From positions 174 to 64,173 of the forward strand of contig DSCM01000102.1 in the NCBI GenBank assembly GCA_011049115.1: a stretch of DNA of 64,000 nt, given 5' to 3'. Positions within the stretch are counted from its first letter, which is position 1. Each line of letters begins with the position of its first letter. The stretch is from Pseudomonadota bacterium. Its GTDB lineage: Bacteria > Desulfobacterota > Anaeroferrophillalia > Anaeroferrophillales > Tharpellaceae. Below are positions 2,590 through 55,570 of the stretch, piece by piece. The translations under genes were made by a program, and so were the position numbers. The notes under the pieces were generated by a model. It had not been told where the DNA came from, did not search any database, and saw only the letters and a list, made by a program, of their open reading frames with translations.

Positions 2590-3624
2590 ATGAAAAATGA
2601 TTATCGATTTTTACGAGCCTGCCGACGTCAGGATGTTGACTGCACCCCGGTCTGGATGATGCGTCAGGCTGGGCGTTACCTGCCGGAATATCGTGCTTTA
2701 CGTGAAAAACACTCTTTTTGGGAAATGTGCAAAACCCCGGAGCTTGCGGTCGAAGTTACCCTGCAACCGCTGCGCCGCATGGAGCTGGACGCTGCCATCC
2801 TGTTTTCCGATATTCTGGTTCCTCTTGAACCCATGGGCTCAGCCATTGAATTTCACGAAGGTCGAGGACCGGTGGTGGAACGACCGATTCGTTCGGCTGC
2901 AGACCTGAAAACCCTAAAAGTCGTTGCGGCGGAAGAAACAGTTCCATTCGTGATGGAGGCTATCCGAATCCTGCGGCGTGAACTTGACGGCAAGGTGCCT
3001 CTGATCGGCTTTTCCGGGGCCCCCTTTACCTTAGCCAGCTATCTGGTTGAGGGCGGTGGCTCAAAACAGTATCAGCACATCAAAACCATGATGTATGTAA
3101 ACCCTCAAGTTTACCATCGACTGATGGAAATGATTACGCAAACCGTGATTTCCTATCTTAAGGCCCAGATTCTAGCTGGGGCTCAGGCCGTGCAGCTTTT
3201 CGACAGTTGGGTCGGTTGTCTTGGATCTTTTGACTATCAAGAATACGTCTTCCCCTACAACCAAAAAATTTTTCAGGCGCTTGCGGAATTTGATATCCCC
3301 AAAATCCACTTTGCCAACCAAGCCTCGACCCTTCTTAAACAGGTGGTTGCCGCCGGCGGAGATGTCATTGGTCTGGACTGGCGCCAAGACATTTCTTCGG
3401 CCTGGGAAATCATTGGTCCGGAATGCGGGGTTCAGGGAAATCTCGAACCGCTTGTCCTGTTTGCTCCGATTCCTGAAATTCGCAGACGAGTAAGAATGGT
3501 TCTCGATCAGGCCGCCAATCGCAACGGTCACATTTTCAATCTTGGCCACGGCATCCTGCCAACTACTCCGATTGACCACGCCAAGGCCATGATTGATGCT
3601 GTACATGAGTTTTCCGTTCGCTAA
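2590..3624 (+). CDS. hemE: Uroporphyrinogen decarboxylase
   Basis: Signature TPVWMMRQAGRYLPEYR near the N-terminus and full-length URO-D fold. Start taken at MKNDYRF (2590, RBS AGGAGC), not at the ORF-track 2485. Confidence 0.9.
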   Translation: MKNDYRFLRACRRQDVDCTPVWMMRQAGRYLPEYRALREKHSFWEMCKTPELAVEVTLQPLRRMELDAAILFSDILVPLEPMGSAIEFHEGRGPVVERPIRSAADLKTLKVVAAEETVPFVMEAIRILRRELDGKVPLIGFSGAPFTLASYLVEGGGSKQYQHIKTMMYVNPQVYHRLMEMITQTVISYLKAQILAGAQAVQLFDSWVGCLGSFDYQEYVFPYNQKIFQALAEFDIPKIHFANQASTLLKQVVAAGGDVIGLDWRQDISSAWEIIGPECGVQGNLEPLVLFAPIPEIRRRVRMVLDQAANRNGHIFNLGHGILPTTPIDHAKAMIDAVHEFSVR

Positions 3625-7196: not shown

Positions 7197-8159
7197 ATGG
7201 AGCGCTTTTATTTGACGGTGGCCCGGGTGGCAAAAAAGACCCTGCACCATATGGTTGAACATCGCATCCCGATGCTGCCCGACATATATTCTCGCCATTT
7301 TTACAAATTTTTGTCCGCAAGTGACCATGACTCCCAGCAACTGATCGAGCAACAGCAACAGAACAGTTTCGACGAACTTATCACTCAGCAGGATCAGGGG
7401 TTCGAGTTGATGACTGAACTGGAACGCCTGATCGGCCGACTTGACCAAATCGCCGGCCAGCACATTGAACAACTCGACAACCATCTCCTGAAGATCAAGG
7501 TCACGGATAAATTTTCTGATCTATCCAAGCTGAAGGATGAGATTACGGCGGAGCTCAATCAAGTCATCACCAGTAACACTAAAATTCACGACCACATTGT
7601 AGACGCGCAGGAGACCGTTAAGCGCCTGCAGGATAAAATGCAGGAAGTCGCCGACATGGCAACCGTCGACGAATTGACCGGACTTTATAACCGCAGGGCT
7701 CTTTTCTGCCGCCTTTCCGAAGAGCTCTCGCGGGCAACCCGCTATGGGCATGGATTCAGCTTGCTGGTGATCGATATTGATGATTTCAAGGCAGTCAACG
7801 ATCAATTCGGTCACCAGACAGGGGATGGAATTCTGCGAGGACTGGGTACTTTCCTACGCCAGAATTTAAGAGATTCAGATTTTCCGGCTCGATGGGGAGG
7901 GGAGGAGTTCACCTGTCTGTTGCCGTCCACCGATTTAGAGCAGGCAGTTCAGGTTGGGAACAAAATCAGAAACCTTCTCTCGCAAAGTACCTTGACCAAC
8001 AAAAAGATAGCTATCTCGCTAAAAATTACGGTCAGCATTGGCGTTTCCTCGTTTTCTGCCGGTGACAACATTGACGGTTTGATTAAGCGTGCCGATGATG
8101 CTCTTTATTTAGCAAAAAGAAGAGGTAAGAACCAGATTATTACCGAGCGTGAAATCTAG
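7197..8159 (+). CDS. GGDEF-domain diguanylate cyclase with N-terminal coiled-coil region
   Basis: ELTGLYNRRALF ... RWGGEEF (GGEEF active site). No transmembrane segment seen. Confidence 0.8.
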   Translation: MERFYLTVARVAKKTLHHMVEHRIPMLPDIYSRHFYKFLSASDHDSQQLIEQQQQNSFDELITQQDQGFELMTELERLIGRLDQIAGQHIEQLDNHLLKIKVTDKFSDLSKLKDEITAELNQVITSNTKIHDHIVDAQETVKRLQDKMQEVADMATVDELTGLYNRRALFCRLSEELSRATRYGHGFSLLVIDIDDFKAVNDQFGHQTGDGILRGLGTFLRQNLRDSDFPARWGGEEFTCLLPSTDLEQAVQVGNKIRNLLSQSTLTNKKIAISLKITVSIGVSSFSAGDNIDGLIKRADDALYLAKRRGKNQIITEREI

Positions 8160-9058
8160 CGCCTATCTTCTTTCAGATAGGCGCTCATGCCTCGCATCGT
8201 ATTGCCCAGAAAATAACGCTCCCGGGCATAAATATCCGGGGCCAACTCATGGATTCGGCGATAATTGGAATCACGTTCCAAGAGCCAGTTAAAAAGTTTT
8301 TCTTCATGATTTTTATCAGGCCGTTGACCTACCCCGATTATCTGACCTACACCTTCGACCCATAAATCAAGTTGCCGACGGCCGATCTGCAGATATTCCA
8401 GCGCCGGTTCAACCAACCCATAATGGGCCATCACCAGATAACGAGGTTTAAGCTCAAGCATGTTATCGATTGAAGTTTGAGCCACATCCAATAAAAATCG
8501 AGGCGGGGTCGCCGGCCGCATGTAAATACCACTCTTGGCCGGGCTCCGGACACCGACGACCTCCCCCGCAAAAAGTACATCATCCAAAAGAAAACAAAGA
8601 TGGTGCTGAGCATGTCCCGGGGTCTTAAAAACTTGAATTCCGGTGTTTCCGACTTCCTCCGCAAAAACAATCTTCTCGGCCGGTACAGGGATAATCTCTC
8701 CATAGACCTCAGCCATACGACCCAAAACTTTCAATGATCCCAGCCAGAGCTGTTCCGGGTCCACCAGATGTTTTACCCCTTCAGGATGACAGATTACCAG
8801 AGCTTCGGGATAGTTTTTCAATAATTCACCGGTACCGCCGGCATGATCAATATGAATATGGGTCAGTAAAATATAATCAATCCTTTTGATATCTTTTCTG
8901 CGCAGCTCAGCCAGTAGAAGCGGGATGGTGGATAAGGGGCCCGGATCGACCAGAAACGTAAACTTTCCCCCCCGGTAAAGCCAGGCGCTCAAGAATTGTT
9001 TGAAACCTTCCAACTGAGGCTGGTCGAGGTCAAGGCAATTGAGATTGTTGAGATTCAT
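8156..9058 (-). CDS. MBL-fold metallo-hydrolase
   Basis: HIHIDHAGG zinc-binding motif. Converges on the GGDEF gene and overlaps its end by 4 nt. Confidence 0.75.
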   Translation of the reverse strand: MNLNNLNCLDLDQPQLEGFKQFLSAWLYRGGKFTFLVDPGPLSTIPLLLAELRRKDIKRIDYILLTHIHIDHAGGTGELLKNYPEALVICHPEGVKHLVDPEQLWLGSLKVLGRMAEVYGEIIPVPAEKIVFAEEVGNTGIQVFKTPGHAQHHLCFLLDDVLFAGEVVGVRSPAKSGIYMRPATPPRFLLDVAQTSIDNMLELKPRYLVMAHYGLVEPALEYLQIGRRQLDLWVEGVGQIIGVGQRPDKNHEEKLFNWLLERDSNYRRIHELAPDIYARERYFLGNTMRGMSAYLKEDRR

Positions 9059-9079
9059 TAAAAAACCTTTTAAGACCTT

Positions 9080-10159
9080 TCATCTAACCAGAACCGCACC
9101 ATAAGGGCATAGTTCCTGGCAGCAGTAACAACGAATACAGCGTTTATAGTCAATAACAATTCTACGATCCATCAGCTTCATGGCCTGAGCCGGGCAATGA
9201 ATGACGCAGACTTGACAAAGATGGCAGCGACTGATGGTAATTTTGGGTTTTGAAATAAAAAACTTACCCCAGAAACGCTGGCCGAAAAAGGTCGCCTGTC
9301 CGGTTCCGCGAGCAGGTTTGATGGCTGGCTCCAGGTATGATTCGGCAGCCGGTCCGACAGTTTCAATCCGCTTTTCGAGTATCCCCAGATTCAAAGCCTC
9401 TTGGCTGATTGGGGGCAAGCCAGGGAAACCAACCCATTTTTCCACCTGATAATCAAGTTCCGGGGCACCGTTGGACAGGGCCAGAAGACCACAGTTCCTG
9501 GGGGTTCCATTAGTTGGCCCCTCCCCTTCCATGCCCACAACCCCATCAAGAAAACTCCAGGTTGGAGGCATTTGCCGGTAGATATCAAGCAGCATACGGG
9601 CAAACAGTCGCCGGTCATGACCGGCGCGTAAATGCCATTGCAGTTTGCGCAGGCCCGGAACCAGGCCAAAAAGATTCTTCACCGCCAAGGTCGTACCCAT
9701 CATCACATGGGTTTTTAATTTAGGCAGATTGATAAGCTTATCGAAATCGCAAGCCCTGTCAGCCAAGGTTATTTCCTTAGCCACCAGACTATTTGTCAGC
9801 GCAACCTTCTTAGGCTCTTCAAAAGAAACGGTGGTGATGGCCAGCGCCCGCATCACCGGTTGCAGACCGCTTTTAAGCAAACATTTTTCGAGCGCACCGA
9901 AGCCTGGACTGTCACCGAGAAAAAGCCGGGCTCCGCAATCCTGCAGCACCATCGCGGTTGCCCGCAAAACTTCCGGATGGGTAGTCACAGCCAGTTCTGG
10001 GGCTTTGCCGATCACCAAGTTCGGTTTCAGAAGAACCCGGTCGCCTCGGCTTACAGTTCCTTCCAAACCTAACGTTGTGAGTCCCTGACGCAGAATATCG
10101 GCAATTATCCTGCTGTCATACTTTGCAGTAGTCGCTAAATACACCCTTCTTGTGTTCAT
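9080..10159 (-). CDS. DUF362-domain protein with C-terminal 2x[4Fe-4S] ferredoxin domain
   Basis: Two CxxCxxCxxxCP motifs at the C-terminus (CHLCQVCVIHCP, CIRCYCCQELCP). The N-terminal DUF362-like region is recognised only from general resemblance. Confidence 0.65.
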   Translation of the reverse strand: MNTRRVYLATTAKYDSRIIADILRQGLTTLGLEGTVSRGDRVLLKPNLVIGKAPELAVTTHPEVLRATAMVLQDCGARLFLGDSPGFGALEKCLLKSGLQPVMRALAITTVSFEEPKKVALTNSLVAKEITLADRACDFDKLINLPKLKTHVMMGTTLAVKNLFGLVPGLRKLQWHLRAGHDRRLFARMLLDIYRQMPPTWSFLDGVVGMEGEGPTNGTPRNCGLLALSNGAPELDYQVEKWVGFPGLPPISQEALNLGILEKRIETVGPAAESYLEPAIKPARGTGQATFFGQRFWGKFFISKPKITISRCHLCQVCVIHCPAQAMKLMDRRIVIDYKRCIRCYCCQELCPYGAVLVR

Positions 10160-10710: not shown

Positions 10711-10908
10711 TTATTTCAACCCTGCTTTAATCAGGTTCCCTTTGCGACTCAGACCGATTTTGTCTTCCCGGGCCAACCAACCCAGTGCGAGGTTAAGATC
10801 GACTGGCGCCAGAGCAAGATTTTTTTTCAGCTGACCGCTGGTCATTTCTCCATTAATTTCGAGTTCCTTCCAGATTCTGCCGGCGTCCACACCAATTTGA
10901 CTATTCAT
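10711..10908 (-). CDS. Small winged-helix (wHTH) domain protein
   Basis: About 65 aa beginning MNSQIGVDAGRIWKEL, with RBS GGAGGAAAAG. The longer ORF-track N-terminus runs into galE and is rejected. Confidence 0.45.
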   Translation of the reverse strand: MNSQIGVDAGRIWKELEINGEMTSGQLKKNLALAPVDLNLALGWLAREDKIGLSRKGNLIKAGLK

Positions 10909-11923
10909 CTTTTCCTCCATATCCATCAGGATTATTTGTCTGCCAATGCCAAGCATCGGTACACATTGAAAGTAAATCACGCTCTGCTTTCCAGCCCAAG
11001 ACATCGCCGGCCCAAGTAGGATCGGCATAACAAACCGCGATATCTCCAGCTCGACGGGGTTCGATCGAATAAGGAATTTCAATCCCGCTGGCTTTTGTAA
11101 AGGTCTCTATCACCTCAAGAACACTGTAACCACGGCCCGTGCCCAGATTGCAGCAAATCAGGCCTGGATTCAGCTGCATTTTTTCAAGAGCACATAAGTG
11201 CCCGCGCGCCAAATCAACGACATGAATATAGTCCCGGACGCCCGTACCATCATGGGTATCATAGTCATTACCGAAAACCGCCAGGCGTTGCCGCCGACCA
11301 ACCGCTACCTGAGAAATATAAGGCAGCAGGTTATTAGGGATGCCTTGTGGATCTTCGCCAATCAAACCGCTGGCGTGCGCTCCGATCGGGTTAAAATAAC
11401 GCAATAAAACGATATTCCAGTCCTTATCTGAAATCTGTAGATCGCGCAGCATGTCTTCAAGCATCAACTTGCTGCGCCCGTAGGGATTGGTAGGTCGCAA
11501 AGCCGCGGTCTCGTCAATCGGTACTGTCACGGGGTCACCGTAAACCGTGGCGGAGGAGCTGAATACCAGATTTTTGACACCATGTTCAGACATGGCCTGC
11601 AAGAGGCTGATGGTACCGCAGAGATTATTATCGTAATAAGTCAGCGGCATTTTGACTGATTCGCCGACGGCCTTGAGACCGGCGAAATGAATTACCGCAT
11701 TGAAATTACCTTCGGCCAGCAGACGGTTAAGCCCGGGCCGGTCACGCAGATCAAGTTTATGGAACCCCACCCGCTTGTTGGTTATCTTTTCTATCCGCGC
11801 CAGAACCTCAGGTGAGCTGTTGCTTAAATTATCAACAATAACGACTTCATAATCTGATGCGAGAAGTTCAACGACAGTATGACTGCCGATATAGCCGCTT
11901 CCACCACTGACTAAGACCCGCAT
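10901..11923 (-). CDS. galE: UDP-glucose 4-epimerase
   Basis: MRVLVSGGSGYIGSHT Rossmann N-terminus, the YxxxK catalytic motif, and 340 aa length. Confidence 0.9.
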   Translation of the reverse strand: MRVLVSGGSGYIGSHTVVELLASDYEVVIVDNLSNSSPEVLARIEKITNKRVGFHKLDLRDRPGLNRLLAEGNFNAVIHFAGLKAVGESVKMPLTYYDNNLCGTISLLQAMSEHGVKNLVFSSSATVYGDPVTVPIDETAALRPTNPYGRSKLMLEDMLRDLQISDKDWNIVLLRYFNPIGAHASGLIGEDPQGIPNNLLPYISQVAVGRRQRLAVFGNDYDTHDGTGVRDYIHVVDLARGHLCALEKMQLNPGLICCNLGTGRGYSVLEVIETFTKASGIEIPYSIEPRRAGDIAVCYADPTWAGDVLGWKAERDLLSMCTDAWHWQTNNPDGYGGKDE

Positions 11924-12102
11924 TTTACCCCTTCATATTGAATCAATAATAAAAAATTATGCAAAAAGAACCTTCATGATTTAAAAAGAATGTTGACAGA
12001 ATCATCTTCAATAACTATTCTTTTTTCATATAAAGTTATCATTACTTATAGGATTACTCTATAATTTAAAATTCAAACATCGAAAATCAAGGAGAGCACC
12101 TA

Positions 12103-12429
12103 ATGCTGGAAGTCAGTAGTGCCGCAGTCGAACAGATTGCCGGCTATTTCACCAATCGTGAACCGGAACCCATCAGAATATTTTTGAACGAAGGCGGCTG
12201 AGGTGGCCCGTCTCTTTCCATGGTCATGGATCAGGAACGCCCCAACGACGAAACCTACAATATCGAGAACTTCACATTCCTTGTCGATCGTGATTTCATG
12301 GAAAAGGTCAAACCGATCAAAGTTGATTTTAAAAACGTCGGTTTCACCATCTCTGCGAATCTTGACCTCAGTAAAATGGGGGGTGGAAGCTGTTCCGGCT
12401 GCGGATCCAGCAGCTCTTGCTGTTCGTAA
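12103..12429 (+). CDS. HesB/IscA-like Fe-S assembly-type selenoprotein (in-frame UGA = Sec at 12199-12201)
   Basis: ATG at 12103 with SD AAGGAGAG 7 nt upstream. The in-frame TGA at codon 33 is flanked by FLNEGG|U|GGPSLSMV, which aligns with E. coli IscA LGVRTSGC35SGMAYV. The reading frame continues unbroken into ORF 12220..12429, which ends in a Cys-rich tail (GSCSGCGSSSSCCS). A hairpin with a GGUC apical loop lies about 17-30 nt after the UGA. Confidence 0.65.
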
Positions 12430-12522
12430 ACTTTTCTCTGCCCAAACTCGAATCTTTCCCCGGGCCGCCTGGTCTGGATGGTTCGAACAAAAATATGACC
12501 CGAGAGCAGTTGAGCATATTAG

Positions 12523-12567
12523 TTTACAGGTTAAAAGGGAAGTATTTCCTCCCTTTTAACCTGTAAA
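12523..12567. terminator. Perfect 18-bp inverted repeat hairpin between convergent genes (putative bidirectional terminator or stem-loop)
   Basis: tttacaggttaaaaggga-agtatttcc-tcccttttaacctgtaaa. There is no clear U-tract on either side, so intrinsic-terminator function is uncertain. Confidence 0.4.
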
Positions 12568-12577
12568 CAGTCCTGGT

Positions 12578-24002: not shown

Positions 24003-25027
24003 GCTTACCAGGCAAGCTACAGACGACGGCGATGGCGGTGATGCCGCATACCGAGCTTGATACAGCCCTTGACCTCGCGCTCTCGCTTGATATCCCCTTC
24101 TGGCCTCAACTGCCCCTCTACGATTATCGTGAAGATATGTATGTCCAGGCGGCCGAGCATTTTCCAGGAATTATTCTCGATCTGGAAAAGGAGAGCTTGC
24201 GTTTTTCAACCGCTAAATTTATCCGTGAACTAGAAGAAACTTTGGCTCATTTTGAAGAACCTGAGTATTTTGATGTCAGCCCTGAATACTCGGTGGTCTA
24301 TCATCGTTTTCTTAAACTTGATCTCAAGAAAAGGGCGGCTATCCGGGGACAACTGGAAGGACCGGTAAGTTTCGGTTTGTTTATTAAAAACGAAGAGGAT
24401 GATCGACCTATCATCTTTGATGATACGGTCAGACCTTTTCTTTATGAATTCATGGCGCGGCGGGTCAATGTTCAACTCGCCCGCCTTAAACGCAGAAACG
24501 CCAATGCCTTCATGTTTGTCGATGAACCCGGACTGCAGTTCCTTTTCAGTGCCATGTCAGGATACAGCGACACTTTAGCCAGGGATGATATTGCGAATTT
24601 TCTTGCCCTGATCGACCGTCCCCGGGGAATCCATCTCTGCGGTAATCCCGACTGGGATTTCCTCCTTGCTTTTGACATGGATATCGTTTCCATCGATCTC
24701 TATTCCAATGCCCGGATTCTGCCTCTTTACCGGCGCTCAATCATCAACTTTATCAAGCGGGGTGGCACGATTGTCTGGGGAATCGTGCCGACTAATATCG
24801 AGCCCTTCAAAAAAGAAACCCCGGATCGGTTGATCGCCTTGCTGGAAACCACCTGGCAGGGCCTGATTGACGACGGTCTCGATCGCGATCTGCTGTTTGA
24901 GAGGAGCCTGCTCTCTCCGGCGACTTGCTGTCTGGTCAATCCGGACCAGGAAAAAACCGTTACTCTGGCATTCAGCCAACTGCGGCAAATTTCATCAACC
25001 TTGCGCGAGACATACAAACTCCTCTAA
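23999..25027 (+). CDS. Conserved hypothetical protein (possible URO-D/MetE-like fold; low confidence)
   Basis: A 342-aa ORF translationally coupled to acpS. No diagnostic motif recognised. Confidence 0.55.
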   Translation: MSLPGKLQTTAMAVMPHTELDTALDLALSLDIPFWPQLPLYDYREDMYVQAAEHFPGIILDLEKESLRFSTAKFIRELEETLAHFEEPEYFDVSPEYSVVYHRFLKLDLKKRAAIRGQLEGPVSFGLFIKNEEDDRPIIFDDTVRPFLYEFMARRVNVQLARLKRRNANAFMFVDEPGLQFLFSAMSGYSDTLARDDIANFLALIDRPRGIHLCGNPDWDFLLAFDMDIVSIDLYSNARILPLYRRSIINFIKRGGTIVWGIVPTNIEPFKKETPDRLIALLETTWQGLIDDGLDRDLLFERSLLSPATCCLVNPDQEKTVTLAFSQLRQISSTLRETYKLL

Positions 25028-25028
25028 A

Positions 25029-26435
25029 ATGCAGCTTGAGCCCGTTTTCGAAATCCTTTTAAAAATCAGTCGCAATCCGTTTTTGCTCAAGCTGGCGAAC
25101 TGTTTTGCGGTCAATAAATGTCGAATTCAAAGAGAGCATCTGATCAACACGGTCACGACTCAGATACTGCAGCAATACGGCAGCGGTGGCATACTGGGCG
25201 AGCTTTCGGTTTTTGAAGCTAAAAATCTGCAGTTGATGCATGACAACATGCTTCTTCATCGGCTCAAAAGCCGCCTTCAGGACAAGGACGGCGAACGTCG
25301 CGTCAGGTACGAAAGCTCGATCCGAAACCTTGAAAAACGAATTGAGTCTCTGAAACAGCTTGAGGGCCCGGAGAGTCTTGGTTTTCTCGTCAAACTGTAT
25401 CTTGAGGATATCGCTCCTGATTTCAACCCGGTTTTTCTGCTCATCTTTAGAACCGTGGCTCAGCGCCTGTTTAATAACTTTATCAAATCAATCAGAGCCG
25501 TTGAATCCCAGCCGGGGACAATCGAACAAATACGCACCCTGATCGGAAGAGAACCGGTTTTCTTTATCGCCAATCATATTTCCAATGCCGATCATCTGCC
25601 GATTCTTTTTGCCCTCAACCGATTCAGACTGATTTCGCCGGTAGTTATCGGCGGCAGCAACCTCTATCATGGACTTTCCGCCCGCCTGCTCCCCAAACTC
25701 AATGTCTGTCAGCTCAAGCGCGATGACATGATCGAAAAAAAAATCAAGTGGCTCGGTAATCCGGTCTATATCGAAACCTTCAAGCAACACAATCAGTATG
25801 CCTGGCTTCACAATGAACCCTATCTGTTCTATCCGGAAGGCGGTCGTTCCCGATCTGGAAAAATACTTAAACCCAAGCTCGGGATCATCAAAAATATCTT
25901 TGATTTTGTCAGAAAAAACCAGCGGGCCGTCCATTTCGTGCCGGTGTCCCTCTCCTACACCTGCGTTCCGGAGGATCTGGAGATTGAAGAAAGTCGCAAG
26001 GGCACCGATATCAGCCATGGCGATCTTATTCAGCAGCTGGCCCGACTCAATCGCGAATATGGCTCTTTCAAAAAAACCGCCACCTATGTCAACCTGGGAT
26101 CCCCGATCACAGTCGCCCCCGATCAGATCCCTGACCTGGAAGATTTCAGCTGCGCCTTGCTGCTGAGGGTCAGAGATGGTATTCGTTCGACCCCGACCTA
26201 TGAGCTTGCCCAGATGATTCTTCATCATTGTGATTCCGGACCGACACAGAACATTTTTTCCAGTAAGATCCTGCTTGACAACCACCCTGCTTTCGGGGCC
26301 CAGCAACTAACCGACGGCCTGGATATTTTGGTTAGGAAAAAATTCATTCTCCCCCTGGCGGAAAAGCCTGTTTACCAGGTAATCAATCCGGACCTGCTGC
26401 ACCAGTACGCCAGTCGCAGGGAATGCGACTTCTGA
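25029..26435 (+). CDS. GPAT/PlsB-like glycerol-3-phosphate (or lysophospholipid) acyltransferase
   Basis: H(x4)D motif FIANHISNADH and YPEGGRSRSGK (motif III). Start at ATG 25029, overlapping the upstream TAA. The ORF-track N-terminal extension is rejected. Confidence 0.7.
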   Translation: MQLEPVFEILLKISRNPFLLKLANCFAVNKCRIQREHLINTVTTQILQQYGSGGILGELSVFEAKNLQLMHDNMLLHRLKSRLQDKDGERRVRYESSIRNLEKRIESLKQLEGPESLGFLVKLYLEDIAPDFNPVFLLIFRTVAQRLFNNFIKSIRAVESQPGTIEQIRTLIGREPVFFIANHISNADHLPILFALNRFRLISPVVIGGSNLYHGLSARLLPKLNVCQLKRDDMIEKKIKWLGNPVYIETFKQHNQYAWLHNEPYLFYPEGGRSRSGKILKPKLGIIKNIFDFVRKNQRAVHFVPVSLSYTCVPEDLEIEESRKGTDISHGDLIQQLARLNREYGSFKKTATYVNLGSPITVAPDQIPDLEDFSCALLLRVRDGIRSTPTYELAQMILHHCDSGPTQNIFSSKILLDNHPAFGAQQLTDGLDILVRKKFILPLAEKPVYQVINPDLLHQYASRRECDF

Positions 26436-26456
26436 GAAAAAAAGGGAGAGATCTTT

Positions 26457-26849
26457 ATGAAAACCGACAACCTGCAAGTTTACGAATATTGTCTGGCGGA
26501 CGGCTGGACGATTCTGGCCGGGAAAAAGGATGTTGATAACGATATTCTCAGTCTTAAGGTCGCGCGCCCGGAAGACTGGTGGTTTCATGTCAGGGGCATG
26601 CCGGGCAGTCATGTCATTCTGCAGGCACCGGCAAACAGCTCGATGGATCCCGGCAAAGAACGATTGCAGCAGGCGGCGGCGGTTGCCGCCTGGCACAGCA
26701 AGGCGCGGATGGGCGGGATTGTCGCGGTCACCTGCTGCAAAGCAAAATTTGTCGGCAAACCCTGCGGAGCCAAACCTGGAACCGTAACCGTGCGCAAAGA
26801 AATCCTGCTCAAAGTACGCCCTGGATTACCGGGCACTGACATAAAATAG
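26457..26849 (+). CDS. DUF814 (NFACT-R-like) domain protein
   Basis: WFHVRGMPGSHVIL motif, characteristic of DUF814. Confidence 0.55.
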   Translation: MKTDNLQVYEYCLADGWTILAGKKDVDNDILSLKVARPEDWWFHVRGMPGSHVILQAPANSSMDPGKERLQQAAAVAAWHSKARMGGIVAVTCCKAKFVGKPCGAKPGTVTVRKEILLKVRPGLPGTDIK

Positions 26850-46319: not shown

Positions 46320-47423
46320 TTATGTAAAGCGGCGCATGAACTGGCGATCAATGTAATCTTTGAGCCTGAAAGCGCTTTTGCCGGAACAGGTCAATCCCCA
46401 TTTGTACAGCAAGCCACTACCGTCGCCGAGATTGAAGATCTGCAGATAGTCGCCCCCGGGGGAAAAAGGGCGCAGTGGGCGGTTCTCCAGGGCAGCCCGC
46501 AGATTATAAAAAAGTACTGGATTTTGCCGCACGGCGTAGACCCCGACCTTATCAAGCGGCTGTTCCGTAAAAGCGATGCAGTCGCCCCCACCGAAAATTT
46601 CGGGACAAGACCAGGACTGAAGAAAACGGTTTACCGCAAGGCCTCCACCCCCTTGCACCAGCAGGCCGGTTTCCACCGCCGGAACCAGGGGCCGGACCCC
46701 GGTGGCAATCAGAACGGCATCGAAATTAATCCGTAAACCTGAGACAAGTTCAAGCTGATCGCCATAAACCGCGTTGACATGACCTTCTTCGAGCACTTCA
46801 ATAGCGCGTCCTTTCAGCGACGCTGTAACCCGCCGTCTGACGCCGACGGGAAAACGAGCCAGCAGTTTTCTGCCGGCGCAAAGCTTAAAACAGAGACGAT
46901 TACAACCCGCCTTATCCCCCAAACGCCGGAGATTTCCCACGATCTCGACCGCGGCCGGGCCGCCGCCGACCACGGCGACCGTCAGCTTGCGCTTTCGCAG
47001 GCGATCACGAATAAAGGTCCGGGCCGCGAGCAGACTTGCAATCGGCTTGACCATGAAGATATTGGCGGCTTTTTCCCTGATCATGCCATGCGGGACGTAG
47101 CTGCCGGTATTCAACGACAGGATATCGTAGCCCAGCGTTTCTCCGGATTCAAGCTCCAGTTCCCGTTTTTCGGCCGCGATGCGCACGACCCGCTCCTGAA
47201 TAAAACAACCGCCATTTTTCTCAACCTGGGCTTGGGTCGGGGAACGGATCTCCTCGGGCTCATAGAAACCGCCGAGCAGCCCCGGTCCCATACCGGAATA
47301 GTAATGTCAGGGCGAAGGCTGAATCACCGTTACCCGATGTCCGCGCCGGACAAACTCATGCAGACCGGCCAGGGTCTTAAGGTGAGCATACCCGCCGCCG
47401 ACCAGGACCAGATTTTTCGGCAT
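46320..47423 (-). CDS. FAD/NAD(P)-binding pyridine nucleotide-disulfide oxidoreductase (NDH-2/SQR-like) with an in-frame UGA (candidate Sec) at 47307-47309
   Basis: ATG at 47423 gives MPKNLVLVGGGYAHL...HRVTVIQPSP-[TGA]-HYYSGMGPGLLGG, which continues in frame into ORF 46320..47291 (second Rossmann motif VAVVGGGPAAVE). The FAD-binding fold spans the UGA, so the gene is either Sec-containing or broken. A UUCCGG-UAUGGGA-CCGGGG hairpin starts 8 nt after the UGA. Confidence 0.5.
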
Positions 47424-47441: not shown

Positions 47442-49043
47442 TCAGGTCAGCGCCGCCGCCAGCAGGGTTTGCGTGTATGGATGAACCGGATGGTTAAACA
47501 CCTGCGCGGCCGCTCCGCTTTCAACGATTTTTCCCTCGTGCAGCACCATGATGCGATGGCACAGAGCCCTGATTACTTTAAGATCATGCGAGATAAAAAG
47601 ATAGGCCAGATTATGTTTTTCCTGCAGGGCCCGCAGCAGATCGACCACCTGGGCCTGAACCGACCGGTCCAGCGAGGACGTCGGTTCATCCAGAACCAGC
47701 AACCGGGGCTCGAGAACCAGGGCTCGGGCGATGGCGATCCGCTGCCGCTGGCCACCGGAAAACTCATGCGGATAACGGCGTAGACAGCTTTCGTCGAGAC
47801 CGACCTCGGCCAGCGTGGCGATCACCTTCCGCAAGCGTTGCCGGGAATCACCCAGACCATGCAGAGCCAGGCCTTCGCCGACGATTCGGTCAATCGTCAG
47901 GCGTGGGCTCAGGCTGGAAAAAGGATCCTGAAAAACAACCTGAAGATCACGTCTCAAGGCGCGCAGCGCCGCACCTTTCAATCCGGTGATATCACGGCCG
48001 GCGAAACAAATCTCACCTTTTGCCGCCAGCAGACGCAACAGGGCGAAGCCCAGGGTCGATTTTCCCGAGCCGCTCTCACCCACCAGGCCGAGACTTTCCC
48101 CGGCGCGAATGGCCAGCGAAACCCCGTCCACGGCTTTGACATGATCCCGAACCCTGCGCCAGAAACCTCGACGCAGGGGAAACCAGACCTTGAGATCACG
48201 GGCTTCGAGAAGGTAGTCGTTTCCCGTTTTCAAAGCCGGGGGCCGGCCGGAGGGTTCGGCGCATAACAGTTTTTGGGTGTAAACATGTTGCGGGCGGGCA
48301 AAAATCTCTCGACAGGTACCGGTTTCGACAATACGGCCACCGGTCATGACCGCGACCCGGTCGGCATAACGCCGGACCACTCCCAGATCGTGAGTAATCA
48401 ACAGCATCGCCATGCCCAGACGTTTATTCAGATCGCGCAACAGGTCGAGTACCTGGGCCTGCACAGTCACGTCCAGAGCCGTCGTCGGCTCGTCGGCAAT
48501 CAACAGGTCCGGCTGATTGGCTAAGGCCATGGCGATCATGACCCGCTGCCGCTGACCGCCGGAAAGCTGATGCGGATAGGCGTCAAGACGGCGAGCGGCG
48601 TCTTCGATACCCACCATTTCCAATAGTTCACGAACCTTTTGCCGCAGTTCCCGGCGGCCCTCGCCCCCCCCGTGCAGTCTCAGGCTTTCCCCGATCTGGC
48701 GGACAATCGGGTGCAGCGGATTAAGCGAGGTCATGGGTTCCTGAAAAATCATGCCGATTCGATTACCGCGCAGATTCCGCATGCGGCTTTCCGGCAGGGT
48801 AAAAATCTCCTGGCCCTTGAAAAAGATGTGCCCCTCACCGGGATGCCAGGCTTCCGGATAAGGCAGCAGGCGCAAAATCGAATGGGCGGTCACCGATTTG
48901 CCGGAACCGCTTTCGCCCACCAGGGCCACGATTTCATGTGGAGCAATCGCCATGGACAGTCGATCCACCGCCAAAAGCGGTTCCGGCCCGCGTCCGAAAG
49001 CCACGGAAAGATTCTTGATTTCAAGTAAAGGCTGAGTCATCAA
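47442..49043 (-). CDS. yejF: ABC transporter ATP-binding protein with duplicated ATPase domains (YejF-like)
   Basis: Two Walker A motifs (GESGSGKS twice), two LSGGQ signatures, 533 aa. Confidence 0.8.
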   Translation of the reverse strand: MMTQPLLEIKNLSVAFGRGPEPLLAVDRLSMAIAPHEIVALVGESGSGKSVTAHSILRLLPYPEAWHPGEGHIFFKGQEIFTLPESRMRNLRGNRIGMIFQEPMTSLNPLHPIVRQIGESLRLHGGGEGRRELRQKVRELLEMVGIEDAARRLDAYPHQLSGGQRQRVMIAMALANQPDLLIADEPTTALDVTVQAQVLDLLRDLNKRLGMAMLLITHDLGVVRRYADRVAVMTGGRIVETGTCREIFARPQHVYTQKLLCAEPSGRPPALKTGNDYLLEARDLKVWFPLRRGFWRRVRDHVKAVDGVSLAIRAGESLGLVGESGSGKSTLGFALLRLLAAKGEICFAGRDITGLKGAALRALRRDLQVVFQDPFSSLSPRLTIDRIVGEGLALHGLGDSRQRLRKVIATLAEVGLDESCLRRYPHEFSGGQRQRIAIARALVLEPRLLVLDEPTSSLDRSVQAQVVDLLRALQEKHNLAYLFISHDLKVIRALCHRIMVLHEGKIVESGAAAQVFNHPVHPYTQTLLAAALT

Positions 49044-49123: not shown

Positions 49124-52100
49124 TTATCCGTTCAAAGCCTCGCGCACCTTGATCGCCAGATTCCGATTTGAAAAAGGCTTCTGAATAAAAATCACCCCCT
49201 GATCCAGCAAGCTCCGATGGACAATAACATTGGCCGAGTATCCGGACATAAACATGGCTTTCATTGCCGGATACTGACGGCGCAGTTGCTCCGCCAAATC
49301 ACGACCGTTCATGACCGGCATGACCACATCGGTGATCAGCAGGCTGATTTCACCCGCGTGCCGCTCAGCCAGGTTCAGAGCCTGATCCGTGGTCTCGGCG
49401 GCCAGCACTCGATAATTCAGCCGTTCGAGGATCGCCTTGACGAGTTTCAGGATGGAAACTTCATCCTCGACCAGCAGCACGGTTTCGCCTTGACCCACGG
49501 GAACTGTCGTCACCTCCGGCTCCGCGCCCGGTTCGTCTTCACCCTGATGACGAGGCAGATAAATCCTGATGGTTGAGCCTTTCCCCGGTTCGCTGTAAAC
49601 ATTGATGAAACCTTTATTTTGTTTGACGATACCGTAAACCGTGGCCAGACCCAGGCCGGTGCCGTCGCCGGCTTTCTTGGTCGTGAAGAAAGGATCGAAA
49701 ATATTGTCGATGATTTCCGGAGGCATGCCGCAGCCGTCATCGCTGACGGCTAAAAGAACGAAGGCACCGGGAATAATAAATCCGGCGTGAGCGGCGCAGT
49801 AGGCCTCGTCAATGGATACGTTATCGGTCTCAATGGTGACCTTGCCGACATCGGTGATGGCATCCCGGGCGTTGACGCAGAGGTTGGCCAGAATCTGGTC
49901 GACCTGAGACGGGTCCATATAAACAGGCCACAAGCCCACTCCCGGACGCCAGAAAAGATCAAGGTTTTCACCCAAAAGCCGACGCAGCATTTTGAGCAGA
50001 CTTTCCACGGTCATATTTAAATCAAGCACTTTGGGGTTGATCTTCTGTTTGCGGGCGAAAGCCAGCAATTGCCGGGTCATCGCCGCGGAGCGGTTCGCGG
50101 CGTCAAGCACTTCCTCCAGATCGGCATACAGAGGCGTGGACGGGTCCAGCCCTTCCAGCGCCATCTCCGTATAACCGATAATCACGCTGAGCATATTATT
50201 GAAATTATGGGCCACGCCTCCGGCCAGACGGCCCACCGATTCCATTTTCTAAGCCTGGTGAAGCTGAGCTTCAAGGTTCTTGCGAACGGTAATATTTCTG
50301 ACAATGCCGACGCCATGAAGACGGTTGTCCAATTCAACCAACACGGCGTTGATATCGGCTGAAAAGAAACTGCCGTCCTTGCGCTTGAGCTGAACATCCT
50401 GCATGACCACGATCTTATCGCGGGGCGACGGTGCCAATCGTGCCCGAAAGTCCGCCAGCCGATCCACCGGGCAGAAGTCGGAAACCGAGAGTTCGTGAAG
50501 TTCCGTAACGGAGTAGCCCAGCATGCGACAGAGCGCTTCATTGCCCGCGACCAGACGGCCTGACTTGACCTTTGCCAACAGAATGCCGTCGCCGGCCGAA
50601 TCGAAGATGGTGCGCAGGGTTTGTTCCGATCTTAGACGCTCGGCCTCCACCTCGATTCCGTGCAGCGCAAAAGCGATGTCACCGGCGATTTCGGTCGGCA
50701 GCGAGGTTTCCTGAGCGTCACCCACAAATTCCGGCGGCGCCAGAACCCCCAGACAGCCGTACTGCCGGCCCTTATGCCTGAGCGCGAGGGTCATGCCGGC
50801 GCATTTTTCATATTGGCCTCCCAGGGGACAGCTTTCGCAGGAGGTCGCCGGATCATTGGTCAGTGCCCCCTCGCAGCAGACAGGATTTTCCCCCTCCGCG
50901 GCCCGGCCCAAAAAACGAGCGAAGGCATCGGGGTCAAATCCGCTCTGCGCCCCCTCAACCTTTTTCGGCAAGTGATCGTTCAGCACAATCCAGGCGCCCC
51001 TGAGCCCGCGTTCACGAACCAGATTCCGGCATACGGCCTGAATCAGGCGGTCACGATCCTTTTCCCGCACGATCAGCTGATTGACGCTGCGGACACCCTG
51101 CAGAACTTCGTTCAGAAACTGGATTCTTCCGGTTTGTTCCGCGACCATTTCCTCCAGTCCCTGTCGGTACCGGGCCAATTCGTCCTCGACCTTTTTGCGT
51201 CGGGAGATGTTGCGGATAATACCGACCGTGCCCAGAAAAGTGGGTAAACCGCCATTAACGGCGCCATACAGGCCGGAACTGTTAACCTCGCCGATGAACC
51301 CGGTTTGACCGCCACGGTGCAACTCCGCGGGCACGGGTTGATCGATTCCGCACGCAAGCAGGTGCAACTCCATGGCCAGGGTCTTGCGGGAACCCGTTCG
51401 ACGTTCATCAAAGAGCTTGGGCGCTTCCTCGTCACCGGTTTTCCGGCCCGCTAATCCGGGAAGGACAGCTTAGCGACTGACTTTCTCAACCTCGGCGGGC
51501 AGGGCAATCGTGGCAAACGGCAGCCCGATCAATTCTTCAGAGCTGTAGCCTAAAAGTTTCACGGCGTCGTTCAGAAACGTAAAACGGCCCTCGGTGTCGA
51601 TACGGTAGACGATGTCGGGGATCGTCGTCACCAGGGTCCGATATCTTTCTTCAGAGGCGGACAGTTCCATGATTCTCCGGGCCAGTTCCTTCTGGGTACG
51701 CTGCAGTTCCAGAAACACACGTACCTTAGCCAACAAGACGGCCGGTTTGTACGGTTTCACGATATATTCAACCGCGCCCAGTTCATAGCCTTTGAACAGG
51801 TCTTCTTCCTCGCCGTAAGCTGCGGTCATGAAGATAACGGGCAGATTTTTCGTTTTGGGGTCACCCCGCAAAAACTCGGCCAGCTCGTAGCCGTTCATGC
51901 CGGGTATCCGCACATCGAGAATCGCCAGGGAAAAATCGTGCGAGAGCGTCATGGTCAGGGCCTGATTCCCGCTGCCGGCCTCGATGACTTCGACATCCAC
52001 GGCGCTCAGGACCTGACGCAGGGCGACCAGGTTTTCCCGGTGGTCGTCCACAATCAGAACCTTCTGCCGTAACGGACGAAAAGGAGTTGAGGCAAGCCCA

Positions 52101-52180
52101 CAAGACTTCGCGGTCAAAATGTGCGCGCCTACCTCCGGAGCGGGAAAAACGTCTTGATTGCGGTTGTCTTTCTGAGCCAT
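49124..52180 (-). pseudogene. Hybrid sensor histidine kinase paralog A (REC-PAS-GAF-HisKA-HATPase_c-REC) interrupted by two in-frame stop codons
   Basis: ORFs 51470..52180, 50249..51373 and 49124..50245 are all in one frame. They are separated only by TAA (51470-51472, in the middle of a PAS domain) and TAG (50249-50251). The intact paralog has CAG/Gln at the second position (QAQKMEAVGRLAGG versus QA*KMESVGRLAGG). RBS GGAGAGG before ATG 52180. Confidence 0.55.
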
Positions 52181-52378
52181 ATCAAGTCCTCTCCGCCAAA
52201 ACCATCTCAGCTTTACAACTCATTCAGCCACCCTTACCGGCACTGTTTTTTGCCCTAATACGGGAAGCGAGCCCCGCAACCTTTCATCCGTTTCGTATAA
52301 TTCGTGAATGACCTTTTGCTACGCCTCCGGCATGCGATTTACCACCCGGTGCAGAAACAGCGAGACTTCATCCAGCAG

Positions 52379-55300
52379 TCACTCCTGGGAACGCACATCC
52401 TTGATCAAAACAGATTGCGCGTGTTCGCGCAATCTGTTTTCCTCGTCGCGGCTGAGATCCCGGGCGGTATGCACGATCACCGGCGGTAATTCAACCCCCT
52501 CGCGTTCAAGCTCGGTGAGCAACTCGTTGCCGTCCATGTCCGGCAGCCGCAGATCGAGAACGGGACAGTCATAGTTTTCCGCACGCAGCGCGGTCATGGC
52601 CTCGGCCCCGGTCGCGGCCTCGTCAACCGTGGTGTCAGCGCTGGCGACCAGCGCCACCGTCGCATGACGGATCTCCGGATCATCCTCGACCACCAGCACC
52701 CGCTTGGAATGTTCGGCGGCAACCTGTTCGAGCCGGCGGAAAGTCAGTTCGAGTTCTTCCGCGTTCAAAGGTTTGACGGCGTGGCTGATCGCGCCGCGGC
52801 TGCGCGATTCGGTCGTGGGTTCTTCAACGGATACCACATGAACGGGAATATGACGGGTGCGAACATCTTCCTTGAGCATCCCCAGGACCGTCCAGCCGTC
52901 CATACCGGAAAGCCCGATGTCGGGAATCACCGCCTCCGGCAGATGTTTGACCGCGAGTTCCAGACCGATTTCCCCGGTCGCCGCGGCCAGGCATTTCAGG
53001 CCTTTCTCGTGGCATTTATCCCGCAGGAGCCCGGCAAAACGTAAATCGTCCTCAATAATCAGAATAACCCGGTCAGTGGCGCTGAGAAGATCACGATCGT
53101 CGTTTATCGGGGGTGGAATCCGGGGCTCTGCAGTCTGGACATCGGCATGTTTTTTCGCCGACCGCGCTCCGTTTTCAGGGGCTGTCTGAGCTTCAACCGG
53201 AAGTTCAAGGCGAAACGTCGATCCCCGGCCCGGTTCGCTATCCAGCTGGATTTCACCGCCCAGCAGGGTTGCGATTTCGCGGGAAATCGACAGCCCCAGT
53301 CCCGTGCCGCCGTATTTTCGCGCCGTGCTGCCGTCGGTCTGCTAAAAGGCCTCGAAAATCACCTTATGCTGTTCCCGGGCGATGCCGATTCCGGTGTCGG
53401 TGATGCTGATGGCGAGCTGTCGCGGAGCGCGGATCCGACCCTGAGCGAAGGTGACCGTGACGCCGCCGGTCTCCGTGAATTTGACGGCGTTGGAGACAAG
53501 GTTGCGAATCACCTGTTCGACGCGCTTGGGGTCGCTGGTAATTTCGTCGGGCGCGTCCTCACGGATCACCACCTTCAGGCTGATCCCCTTTTCCTCGGCC
53601 AGATGCCCGAAAGATGTGCGGACGCGTTCGGCAAGCTCGCTGACCGACACCGGTCCGAAACGCAAATCTATGCGCCCGGCCTCGATTCGAGACAGATCCA
53701 GAATTTCGTTGATCAGGTTCAGAAGATCGTTACCGGCGGCGTGAATAATCTTCGCCGACTCCACCTGATCGGCGGCCAGATTGCCATCCTGGTTTCGGGC
53801 GAGACCTTGAGCGAGCAGCAGCAGGCTGTTCAGCGGCGTTCGCAGTTCATGCGACATGTTCGCCAGGAATTCGGACTTGTACTTGCTGGCCAGCGCCACT
53901 TCCTCGGCTTTTTCCTTCACGACCTTTCCGGCACGTTCGATTTCCCGGGTCCGGCGTTCAAGCAGATCATTTTTTTCCTTGAGCTCCTCATTGGTGAGCT
54001 CCAATTCCTCTTGTTGCCGCCTGAGATTTTCCTCGGATTCCTGCAAGCGCAAAGTCTGTTCTTCCAACTCCTCGTTGGCAACCCTCAACTCCTCCTGCTG
54101 AACCTGAAGTTCTTCGGTTAAGCGCTTCGACTCCTCGAGCAGTTCCTTCATGCGTTCCCGCGATTGGGCGGTCTGGACGGCGATCCCGATCGAATCGGTC
54201 ACCAGGTCAAAAAAGTCCCGGTGCAGAGCCGAGAACGGCTTAAGCGAGGCAATTTCAATAACCCCCATGAGCTCCTGCTCAAACAGGAAGGGCACAGCGA
54301 GAATATTCCGGGGGCCCAGTTGGCCGAGGGCCGATCCGATCATGACATAGTCTGCCGGCACATCGTGCAGCGACAGCGGCTTTTTCCCGGCCGCCGCCTG
54401 CCCCACCAACCCTTCACACCAACCGCAAAGACCTCCGACACCGCCTCGTGTTTACGGTAGGCATAGCGACCGGTCAGACGAAGCCGGCCGTTAACAAACA
54501 GAAAAAGCGCTCCCCAACTGGGCGTCAACGACTTCGACGACACAGGCGATAATTTCATCGGCGAGCGTCACGAGGTCCTTTTCACCCCGCAGGTGTTCGT
54601 TCAGCCGGTTCCGCCCCTCGCGCAGCCGCTCCTGTCTTTGCAGTTTAGCCGCCATGTCGTTGAAAGCCGCGCCGAGCCCGCCGATTTCATCACGAGTCAA
54701 AATTTATGTGCGCACGCCCAGATCGCCCGCGGCGACCCGCTCCGCCGCGGCGGTGATTTGCTGTAACGGAAAGGCGATCACCCGGTTCATTACCCAGGCT
54801 ATGAAAAGGGCAAATAAAATCGCCGCCAGCGCGATGATCACAAACGTGATGACCGCGTGGTTCAGCAGACGCGCGGATTCGCCCACCCTGGTGGCGATAT
54901 ATTTTCGCAGCCCCTCGTCAACCGCGATCAAAGTTGCACGCATTCGTTCAAAACGCGCTTTTTGCGCTCCCGTGCCGATCATACGCGCTTCGTCGGCTTT
55001 ACCGGCGCCAATCAGTTTAAGCTGTTGCGCGAGATCCAAACAATAGGCCTCCAGATCATGCTCCAGTTCGGCAACCAGTTTGAGTTCTCCGGCGAGCGCA
55101 TGCTTGTGCAAAAAGGTCTTGACCTGATCAACGGCAAGGTCAATCTCCTGCAATCTGTCCTCAATTTCGCGCTTTAAAGTACTCGTGGCGGCGACATTCT
55201 CGGCTACCAGCAGTCCCAGCAAGGAACCCCGAATGCGATTCAGATCGGAGCGGGTTTCCAGTAAGGCCATCAAGGCCGCATAACTCTGGTCAACCATCTA

Positions 55301-55555
55301 GCGCTCAAGCCTTTGCATCAGGGCGAGTTTATCATAGGCGGTCAGGGACAAGCCGACCAGCAGGGCGCCCATGACCCCAAAGCTCAATAACAGCTTTGAC
55401 TTTACCCCTGAGATGTCTAAACCAGTCCATGACAACGCTCCTTTATAATCGGGGCCATTTTGAATCTTAAAAAACAGCTCCCGCGCCGCGATTTCCGGCC
55501 TGACCACGGGGGAAGACGAGCTCAAGAAAACCCGGTCAACCGTTGCCGGAAACAC
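52379..55555 (-). pseudogene. Hybrid sensor histidine kinase paralog B (TM-4HB sensor-TM-HAMP-GAF-HisKA-HATPase_c-REC-REC) with three in-frame stops and two compensating frameshifts
   Basis: In-frame TAG at 55298-55300, TAA at 54704-54706 (inside the HAMP domain) and TAG at 53342-53344 (FEAF*QTDG, where the HATPase consensus has Q). The frame shifts near 54490 and near 54415 inside the GAF domain, and a TAA at 54491-54493 falls inside that shifted stretch. The receiver-domain sequence continues upstream of ORF 52379..52930 without an ATG. Confidence 0.5.
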
Positions 55556-55570
55556 ACGCGTTAAACCCCA

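Follow-up and report, generated by a model that had tools for sequence, protein, structure and literature searches.

Does the TGA at 12199-12201 end a gene, or is it read as selenocysteine (Sec) within a longer one? The question is raised by a locus in a 64,000-nucleotide stretch of DNA (the window; positions 223-64222 of a 102,085-bp ENA metagenome contig), where the mechanical list of open reading frames (ORFs) holds only a 69-codon ORF, 12220..12429. The frame opened by ATG 12103 passes through TGA 12199-12201 and ends at TAA 12427-12429; it has 108 sense codons, counting the UGA, and the translation MLEVSSAAVEQIAGYFTNREPEPIRIFLNEGG*GGPSLSMVMDQ...SCCS*. From the comparisons described here, we are confident that this is a Sec-encoding gene of the HesB/IscA family and a member of NCBIfam NF038090. 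The features of the locus are listed below.

11993..12065, + strand: two sigma-70-like promoter matches from a consensus scan, 5' of the gene
12089..12096, + strand: Shine-Dalgarno (SD) sequence AAGGAGAG, 6 nt 5' of ATG 12103
12103..12429, + strand: predicted complete CDS (108 codons and the TAA stop) of a HesB/IscA-family selenoprotein whose residue 33 is Sec
12199..12201, + strand: putative Sec codon UGA for residue 33, where A-type carriers have their first cluster-ligand Cys
12202..12243, + strand: SECIS-like element, MFE structure (-13.0 kcal/mol) for the 55 nt from the UGA
12220..12429, + strand: 69-aa fragment from standard gene callers, GenBank HDS16739.1
12391..12426, + strand: Cys-rich C-terminal tail C97-S-G-C100-G-S-S-S-S-C106-C107-S, holding the remaining putative ligands

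A coding frame on both sides of the UGA

The first-pass annotation had claimed a strong SD with a start at ATG 12103, a frame running through the TGA into 12220..12429, and a gene that standard callers would truncate to 69 residues. The SD does lie where it was described, translation confirms the frame, and the ORF list and GenBank agree on the truncated product, the public record of which (P0002, identical to HDS16739.1) is named 'hypothetical protein ENN66_09085'. Among the orthologous sequences, AGGAG or GGAGG stands 5-9 nt before ATG-1 in 38/38, while no SD was found in the sequence before the internal ATG 12220, and codon 40, to which that ATG corresponds, reads TTG in orthologs L033 and L037. 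The codons 5' of the UGA vary in the manner of those 3' of it: between Sec forms, codons 1-32 show 0.205/0.147/0.520 pairwise differences per site at codon positions 1/2/3, and codons 34-84 show 0.221/0.176/0.514, and in the window's own clade (clade A) 1173 synonymous differences stand against 234 non-synonymous codon differences 5' of the UGA. The pattern of substitution indicates that purifying selection is equal on codons 1-32 and 34-84, and the comparative evidence places the start of translation at ATG 12103.

Since TGA is the commonest stop in the window, closing 19/44 of the long ORFs, and since family models also end there (in YejF, for example, the match to the model runs right up to the TGA), UGA is not reassigned in this genome. 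Upstream of the gene, the two promoter matches are TTGACA-17-TATTCT (11993-12021) and TTATCA-18-TATAAT (12036-12065), both from the consensus scan, and the region holds 4 promoter-like sites against 1.3 expected from shuffles; these may act as promoters but are pattern matches only.

Selenocysteine and cysteine forms among relatives

When one genome per species was scanned, 37 true relatives emerged, with identities of 50-87% and all from MAGs labelled Desulfobacterales, Deltaproteobacteria, Thermodesulfobacteriota or Ca. Tharpella. Read in frame from the conserved ATG, codon 33 is TGA in 33/37 loci and TGC or TGT in the other four (L021, L022, L026 and L027). The first-pass annotation had pointed out that its reading would fail if orthologs carried a stop or a frameshift here instead of Cys or Sec; among the 37 loci we found neither a frameshift nor any other residue at this codon. 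With TGA in 33/37 loci and Cys in the rest, conservation of the recoded frame is, judged from these alignments, far beyond chance.

The protein database tells a similar story in fragments. Dozens of close homologs have been called as proteins of 67-70 aa, nine further natural full-length homologs carry G-G-C-G-G, and three entries (P0001, P0018 and P0038) have W at the Sec site. Because the terminal TGA of P0018 has also been rendered as W, its internal W is an artefact of a gene caller using code 4.

Membership of the IscA_HesB_Se family

HesB-like proteins have been catalogued as a prokaryotic selenoprotein family, with the motif UxGP, since the mid-2000s. They are common in Deltaproteobacteria such as Syntrophobacter, Syntrophus, Desulfovibrio and Geobacter, and in the HesB-like protein of the archaeon Methanococcus maripaludis Sec has been confirmed by 75Se labelling. 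NCBI curates a model, NF038090, that carries selenium in its name. For profile and structure-database searches the protein of the window was entered with U as C. It matches NF038090 (IscA_HesB_Se) with 100.4 bits (E 5.7e-29) against a curated cutoff of 85, residues 1-99 aligning with profile positions 1-101 of 101. It has the same length, the G-G-(U/C)-G-G-P motif and the Cys-rich tail found in the natural Cys-form homologs of that family, and no structural difference from them, although GenBank lists the copy in the window as a hypothetical protein cut down to 69 aa.

The classical HesB-like selenoprotein model TIGR01911 (HesB_rel_seleno) gives a different result: 34.5 bits, below the cutoff of 66.35, over residues 8-75 only. 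The two share the superfamily and the Sec ligand position, and U-G-G-P in the window's protein fits the classical motif. In contrast, the match to TIGR01911, a model of 92 positions, ends at residue 75, beyond which the window's protein continues into a C-x-x-C...C-C tail whose counterpart in the alignment is the C-terminal motif of IscA. The earlier assignment to a known HesB-like selenoprotein family is thus borne out by NF038090 but not by the classical model, and from these scores we place the protein in NF038090 as a sister model of TIGR01911, to which it is related without being a member. The family is already catalogued; the copy in the window is an additional member of it, and the earlier reading of the gene was correct.

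Scores against broader and more specific models of A-type carriers all stay below their cutoffs: Pfam PF01521 (Fe-S_biosyn) falls just short at 25.4 against 26.3, TIGR00049 reaches 37 bits against 58.8, and the equivalog models give 22.5 against 150.6 for IscA, 21.8 against 117 for ErpA and 18.8 against 136.2 for SufA. The best match to a solved structure is the IscA of Aquifex aeolicus (PDB 1NWB, E 5.5e-4), in which G-G-C(U)-G-G of the query falls on G-G-C-S-G and S-C-S-G-C-G-S-S-S-S-C falls on S-C-G-C-G-S-S-F-S-C with an insertion or gap of one residue. By this alignment, U33 is placed on the first cluster-ligand Cys. In an alignment with the nine natural Cys-form homologs, C33, C97, C100 and C106 are invariant, so that the proposal that Sec occupies a cluster-ligand Cys matches both the ligand of 1NWB and the invariant C33 of the Cys homologs. 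Homology to IscA, SufA and ErpA extends over the full length, with the three ligand positions putatively kept and the last two lying in the C-terminal Cys motif, which is one residue longer here; the window's protein differs from these carriers in having Sec at ligand 1, C-S-G-C for C-G-C, and two additional terminal cysteines.

A SECIS-like hairpin downstream of the UGA

The GGUC-loop hairpin that had been proposed 3' of the UGA is present at 12217-12230 and lies within the limits of the bacterial SECIS (bSECIS) model. That model allows a loop of 3-9 nt, an upper stem of 4-16 bp, a G in the first two loop positions, a distance of 16-37 nt from the UGA and an MFE of -7.5 kcal/mol or lower (PMC13188914). 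In the window, the apical stem is UCCAU 12217-12221 paired with AUGGA 12226-12230, the loop is GGUC 12222-12225, and the lower helices are 12202-03/12242-43, 12205-07/12239-41 and 12211-13/12234-36. The element thus agrees with every published bSECIS constraint (GGUC, 5 bp, 20 nt from UGA to loop, -13.0 kcal/mol). The apical loop of E. coli fdhF is likewise GGUC, at a nearly equal distance. Set against the bacterial SECIS consensus (the bSECISearch model, of the E. coli fdhF type), the window has a 4-nt loop starting G-G-U and a 5-bp upper stem, but the element is without a match to any Rfam family.

By itself this fit carries little weight: of 1500 random TGAs in the window, 56% pass the loose bSECIS criteria as well. 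In a strict version, in which at least five Watson-Crick pairs and G[G/U] at the start of the loop are demanded, 3.2% of random TGAs pass, and so does the site at 12199. The fold energy is not better than that of shuffled sequences (z +0.55 and +0.96), and Rfam returned no SECIS or other credible family, either for the whole window at the gathering threshold or for 12050-12500 at E<=10.

The comparison of relatives is more informative. Among the 16 sequences of the window's clade (15 distinct), the apical stem never varies and is 100% paired, and pairing in the lower helix reaches 97%, with G-C/G-U changes. Synonymous variation in this clade is zero at TCC39, GTC41, CAG44 and GAA45, while flanking codons vary, and mean synonymous entropy drops from 0.79 in the other codons to 0.48 over codons 34-47 (one-sided p=0.018). 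As the GGUC hairpin is invariant here, it offers no compensatory changes. A sister Sec clade of 18 sequences has a different hairpin, GGCUC-UGGAU-GAGCC, whose loop, UGGAU, stands at a distance of 25 nt from the UGA; this hairpin is paired in 17/17 distinct sequences, and its lower helix covaries between U-A and C-G at 2 pairs and in 7 cells (U-A 9 and C-G 6 at one pair), a covariation score reached by 0/500 shuffles. Comparison of the two clades makes plain that conservation of the SECIS-like element across the family does not extend to its sequence. Most of the Cys forms (5 distinct) also encode the A-L-D-E peptide, yet they retain only 0-3 of the five apical pairs because GCG or GCC is used in place of GCU. 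These data support the view that the hairpin is under selection as RNA, being kept in Sec forms and dispensable in Cys forms.

Which hairpin would serve as the exact signal is a narrower matter. A competing fold, UUCC(A)UGGUC-AUG-GAUCAGGAA, pairs 12216-19 and 12221-25 with 12229-37 around the loop AUG 12226-28; it has 9 bp, is 97% paired in the window's clade, where it is as well conserved as the GGUC hairpin, and is mutually exclusive with the latter. As bare hairpins, the competing fold is locally the more stable, at -7.1 kcal/mol against -3.1 kcal/mol for the GGUC form. On the other hand, the AUG loop breaks the G rule of bSECIS, and two relatives, L014 and L015, lengthen the GGUC stem by G·U or G-C and U-A pairs. 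We favour the GGUC hairpin at 12217-12230 over the AUG-loop fold from these sequence comparisons, as the preferred rather than the proven signal.

Sec machinery and other in-frame TGAs

No tRNA-Sec was detected by ARAGORN in the window or in the 38 loci, stretches in which it reported no tRNA genes at all. Likewise, selA, selB and selD are absent from the 40 annotated proteins of the window (NCBIfam/Pfam), and no Sec machinery was found in the 7 kb beyond the right end of the window on the 102-kb ENA contig.

A scan of the window for in-frame TGAs gave 105 candidates. The most suggestive of the others is 47422-46320 (- strand), a FAD/pyridine-nucleotide-disulfide oxidoreductase that matches TIGR03169 'Nterm_to_SelD' and has its Rossmann motif 5' of an in-frame TGA at 47309-47307. 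We rejected it as a second selenoprotein: its homologs have Tyr (72), His (35), Phe (9) or Cys (1) at the site, with 119 homologs considered, and in another assembly from the same population the codon is TGG. Comparison of these sequences identifies TGA 47309-47307 as a G->A nonsense variant or an assembly error and not as Sec. This private TGA serves as an internal control beside the TGA at codon 33, which is kept in 33 genomes. Three further candidates were also discarded: 10159->8156 consists of two adjacent genes; the extension upstream of pdxJ (22750) is not coding-like, and its downstream part starts like a complete protein; and 24867-26849 is composed of an acyltransferase gene and an unrelated NFACT-R gene.

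Alternatives to Sec at codon 33

If TGA 12199 were a true stop, whether in a pseudogene or through a nonsense mutation or sequencing error, the locus would yield only a 32-residue product, a 69-residue product or both. That gene callers and GenBank annotate the 69-aa ORF alone agrees with such a stop, and the TGA at 47309-47307 shows that nonsense variants or errors do occur in the window. However, given that TGA stands at the same codon in 33 independent genomes at 50-87% identity, with Cys in its place otherwise, that variation dominated by codon position 3 is alike on both sides, that SD and ATG are found at codon 1 in all sequences, that ATG 12220 is without an SD and is TTG in two orthologs, and that the N-terminal 32 residues are integral to the match to the IscA-family domain, we regard a true stop as extremely improbable; the conservation seen in these sequences effectively refutes it.

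Hardly more credible is the proposal that the UGA is read as a standard amino acid with no Sec involved, be it Trp under code 4, Gly under code 25 or the product of near-cognate read-through. The three database entries with W at the site would fit this proposal, but at least P0018 is the product of a code-4 gene caller. Moreover, 19/44 long ORFs of the window stop at TGA, where family models end too; Cys is the only alternative residue in natural homologs, which is a hallmark of Sec sites; and the downstream hairpin is kept in TGA forms and absent from Cys forms. We therefore retain Sec as the residue encoded at codon 33.

A putative Fe-S carrier

The function of HesB-like selenoproteins has been described in the literature as 'not clear'. 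By homology, a role of the product as a Fe-S carrier seems to us somewhat the better supported reading. The chief alternative accepts a selenoprotein that is not a Fe-S carrier, acting instead in a redox or chalcogen relay (a selenenylsulfide or persulfide shuttle) or as a metal chaperone. We consider this the less probable reading, though one with several points in its favour: most prokaryotic selenoproteins resemble thiol oxidoreductases, the canonical IscA/SufA/ErpA equivalog scores lie far below cutoff, the C-terminal motif is C-S-G-C...C-C instead of C-G-C, a mutant of M. maripaludis disrupted in a hesB-like gene has no defect in nitrogen fixation, and neighbouring genes are conserved only within the window's clade. 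Against it stand the position of Sec, exactly on the first cluster ligand, the invariance of the remaining ligand cysteines, and the fact that two unrelated Cys-form loci adjoin genes for Fe-S enzymes.

The genomic surroundings of the Sec gene itself contribute little. It stands alone, flanked by a divergent galE (10901-11923, - strand) and a convergent gene for an unknown protein of 168 aa, an arrangement common only to the 15 closest relatives; this context is plain synteny within a close clade and therefore indicates no functional linkage. Of the two Cys-form loci, one follows genes for HdrD-like and FlpD/MvhD Fe-S enzymes, and the other follows genes for an HGD-D dehydratase and a BcrAD activator; such neighbours lend slight support to a carrier role. 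For the Cys homolog P0031, AlphaFold gave a model with a mean pLDDT of 54.7 and a tail below 50. At this low confidence the model supports only a predicted α-β4-α order of elements, which would fit A-type carriers.

For a Fe-S carrier encoded with Sec, we propose the following model. The gene would be a stand-alone transcription unit. When the ribosome arrives at UGA 12199, a SelB-type factor loaded with Sec-tRNA(Sec) would sit on the downstream mRNA hairpin, most likely the 5-bp stem at 12217-12230 with its GGUC loop, stacked on the lower helices of 12202-12243, and Sec would be inserted at codon 33 in place of termination. Sec33 would then form the first of the three cluster-ligand positions of A-type Fe-S carriers and, together with C97 and C100 (and C106 and C107), could bind and hand over a Fe-S cluster or iron. 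The selenolate, being more nucleophilic and of lower pKa, might speed ligand exchange.

A possible turnover of the hairpin within the coding sequence

The two hairpins of the Sec clades suggest, tentatively, that the SECIS-like element has turned over within the CDS, the window's clade having replaced GGCUC-UGGAU-GAGCC by UCCAU-GGUC-AUGGA, so that RNA would have dictated residues 39-46. In such a turnover the GGCUC-UGGAU-GAGCC hairpin, which is encoded by M-A-L-D-E-P, a peptide common to Cys forms, looks ancestral; the new hairpin would lie 5 nt nearer to the UGA, and the peptide would now be M-V-M-D-Q-E. The closest named relatives are the two Ca. Tharpella MAGs, which fall in the window's clade. 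Ca. Tharpella belongs to a candidate phylum whose description paper makes no mention of selenium. If the turnover did take place, this would be the first sign that Tharpellota-like bacteria decode Sec.

The gene marks an uncultured hydrothermal or sediment lineage, related to Ca. Tharpella and to Desulfobacterales-like MAGs, as very probably Sec-decoding. HDS16739.1 and dozens of its orthologs, which now stand either as fragments of 67-70 residues or as mistranslations containing Trp, should have their annotation changed to selenoproteins of 103-110 residues. The practical consequences are modest and lie mainly in this repair of annotation, and no new question is opened by them. Sec and Cys forms with nearly the same local peptide and differing synonymous sites nevertheless provide a clean natural contrast, which illustrates how a SECIS hairpin may constrain the choice of codons within a CDS.

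Database entries and hairpin of the HesB-like selenoprotein

Three database homologs of the HesB-like gene (window 12103-12429) that are listed in ENA as 'full-length' proteins, P0001, P0018 and P0038, carry Trp at the Sec position. Since the terminal TGA of P0018 is likewise translated as Trp, at least this entry is a TGA form that a gene caller rendered with genetic code 4, and P0001 and P0038 presumably have the same origin. The HesB-like family is systematically mis-annotated, through Trp-for-Sec entries as well as through 69-aa truncations. At one Sec-form locus, L036 from a Desulfococcus MAG, ARAGORN called a 419-nt 'tmRNA' (3126-3544) that overlaps the HesB-like coding sequence; this call is probably a false positive.

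The sister Sec clade (L016-L020, L023-L025 and L028-L037) has a SECIS-like hairpin in the columns 13-44 past the UGA; its UGGAU loop is spaced 25 nt from that codon, and it differs from the hairpin of the window's own clade. In the lower helix of the sister-clade hairpin, the choice between the Leu codons CUG and UUA covaries with an exchange of Arg (AGA) for Lys (AAA), an apparent case of protein sequence co-evolving with RNA structure.

Surroundings of the HesB-like gene and its Cys-form homologs

Fe-S enzyme genes lie immediately upstream of Cys-form homologs of the HesB-like protein (L044 2506-5318; L045/L046 636-5318). At one locus these encode an HdrD-like Fer4+CCG protein and FlpD/MvhD, and at another a pair of HGD-D dehydratase subunits along with a BcrAD/BadFG activator. 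In the window, the HesB-like gene is followed by an inverted repeat:

12522-12568, perfect 19-bp inverted repeat, arms GTTTACAGGTTAAAAGGGA and TCCCTTTTAACCTGTAAAC, 9-nt loop

The repeat is situated between the HesB-like gene and a convergent 168-aa minus-strand ORF, the 3' end of which it overlaps. No T-run follows it on either strand, and it may be a bidirectional terminator or a protein-binding site.

Other in-frame TGA codons in the window

Two further minus-strand regions contain an in-frame TGA:

46320-47422, minus, FAD-dependent pyridine-nucleotide-disulfide oxidoreductase gene, sub-cutoff match to TIGR03169 'Nterm_to_SelD' (245 bits against a cutoff of 310)
8156-10159, minus, two genes in frame with each other

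In the oxidoreductase gene, the TGA (47309-47307) falls downstream of the Rossmann motif. Given that homologs have Tyr, His or Phe at this position, and that L047, a second assembly of the same population, has TGG at the same codon, the TGA is a G->A nonsense variant or an assembly error and does not encode selenocysteine. At 8156-10159, a 359-aa gene with an Npun_F2552-family domain and a 4Fe-4S ferredoxin domain stops at TGA 9082-9080, and a metallo-beta-lactamase-fold gene starts in frame with that stop 7 codons on (ATG 9058). As the C-terminus of the first protein (...CPYGAVLVR*) resembles the end of a complete ferredoxin domain, we rejected a recoding site and read the region as two genes.

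Signalling genes

Two-component signalling genes are densely packed in one further region:

49124-59071, genes for a multi-PAS hybrid kinase of 1166 aa, for CckA-like hybrid kinases and for several stand-alone receivers

This block adjoins genes of a YejABEF-type peptide ABC transporter, which it splits into an ATPase gene (47442-49043) and permease genes (59022-61186).
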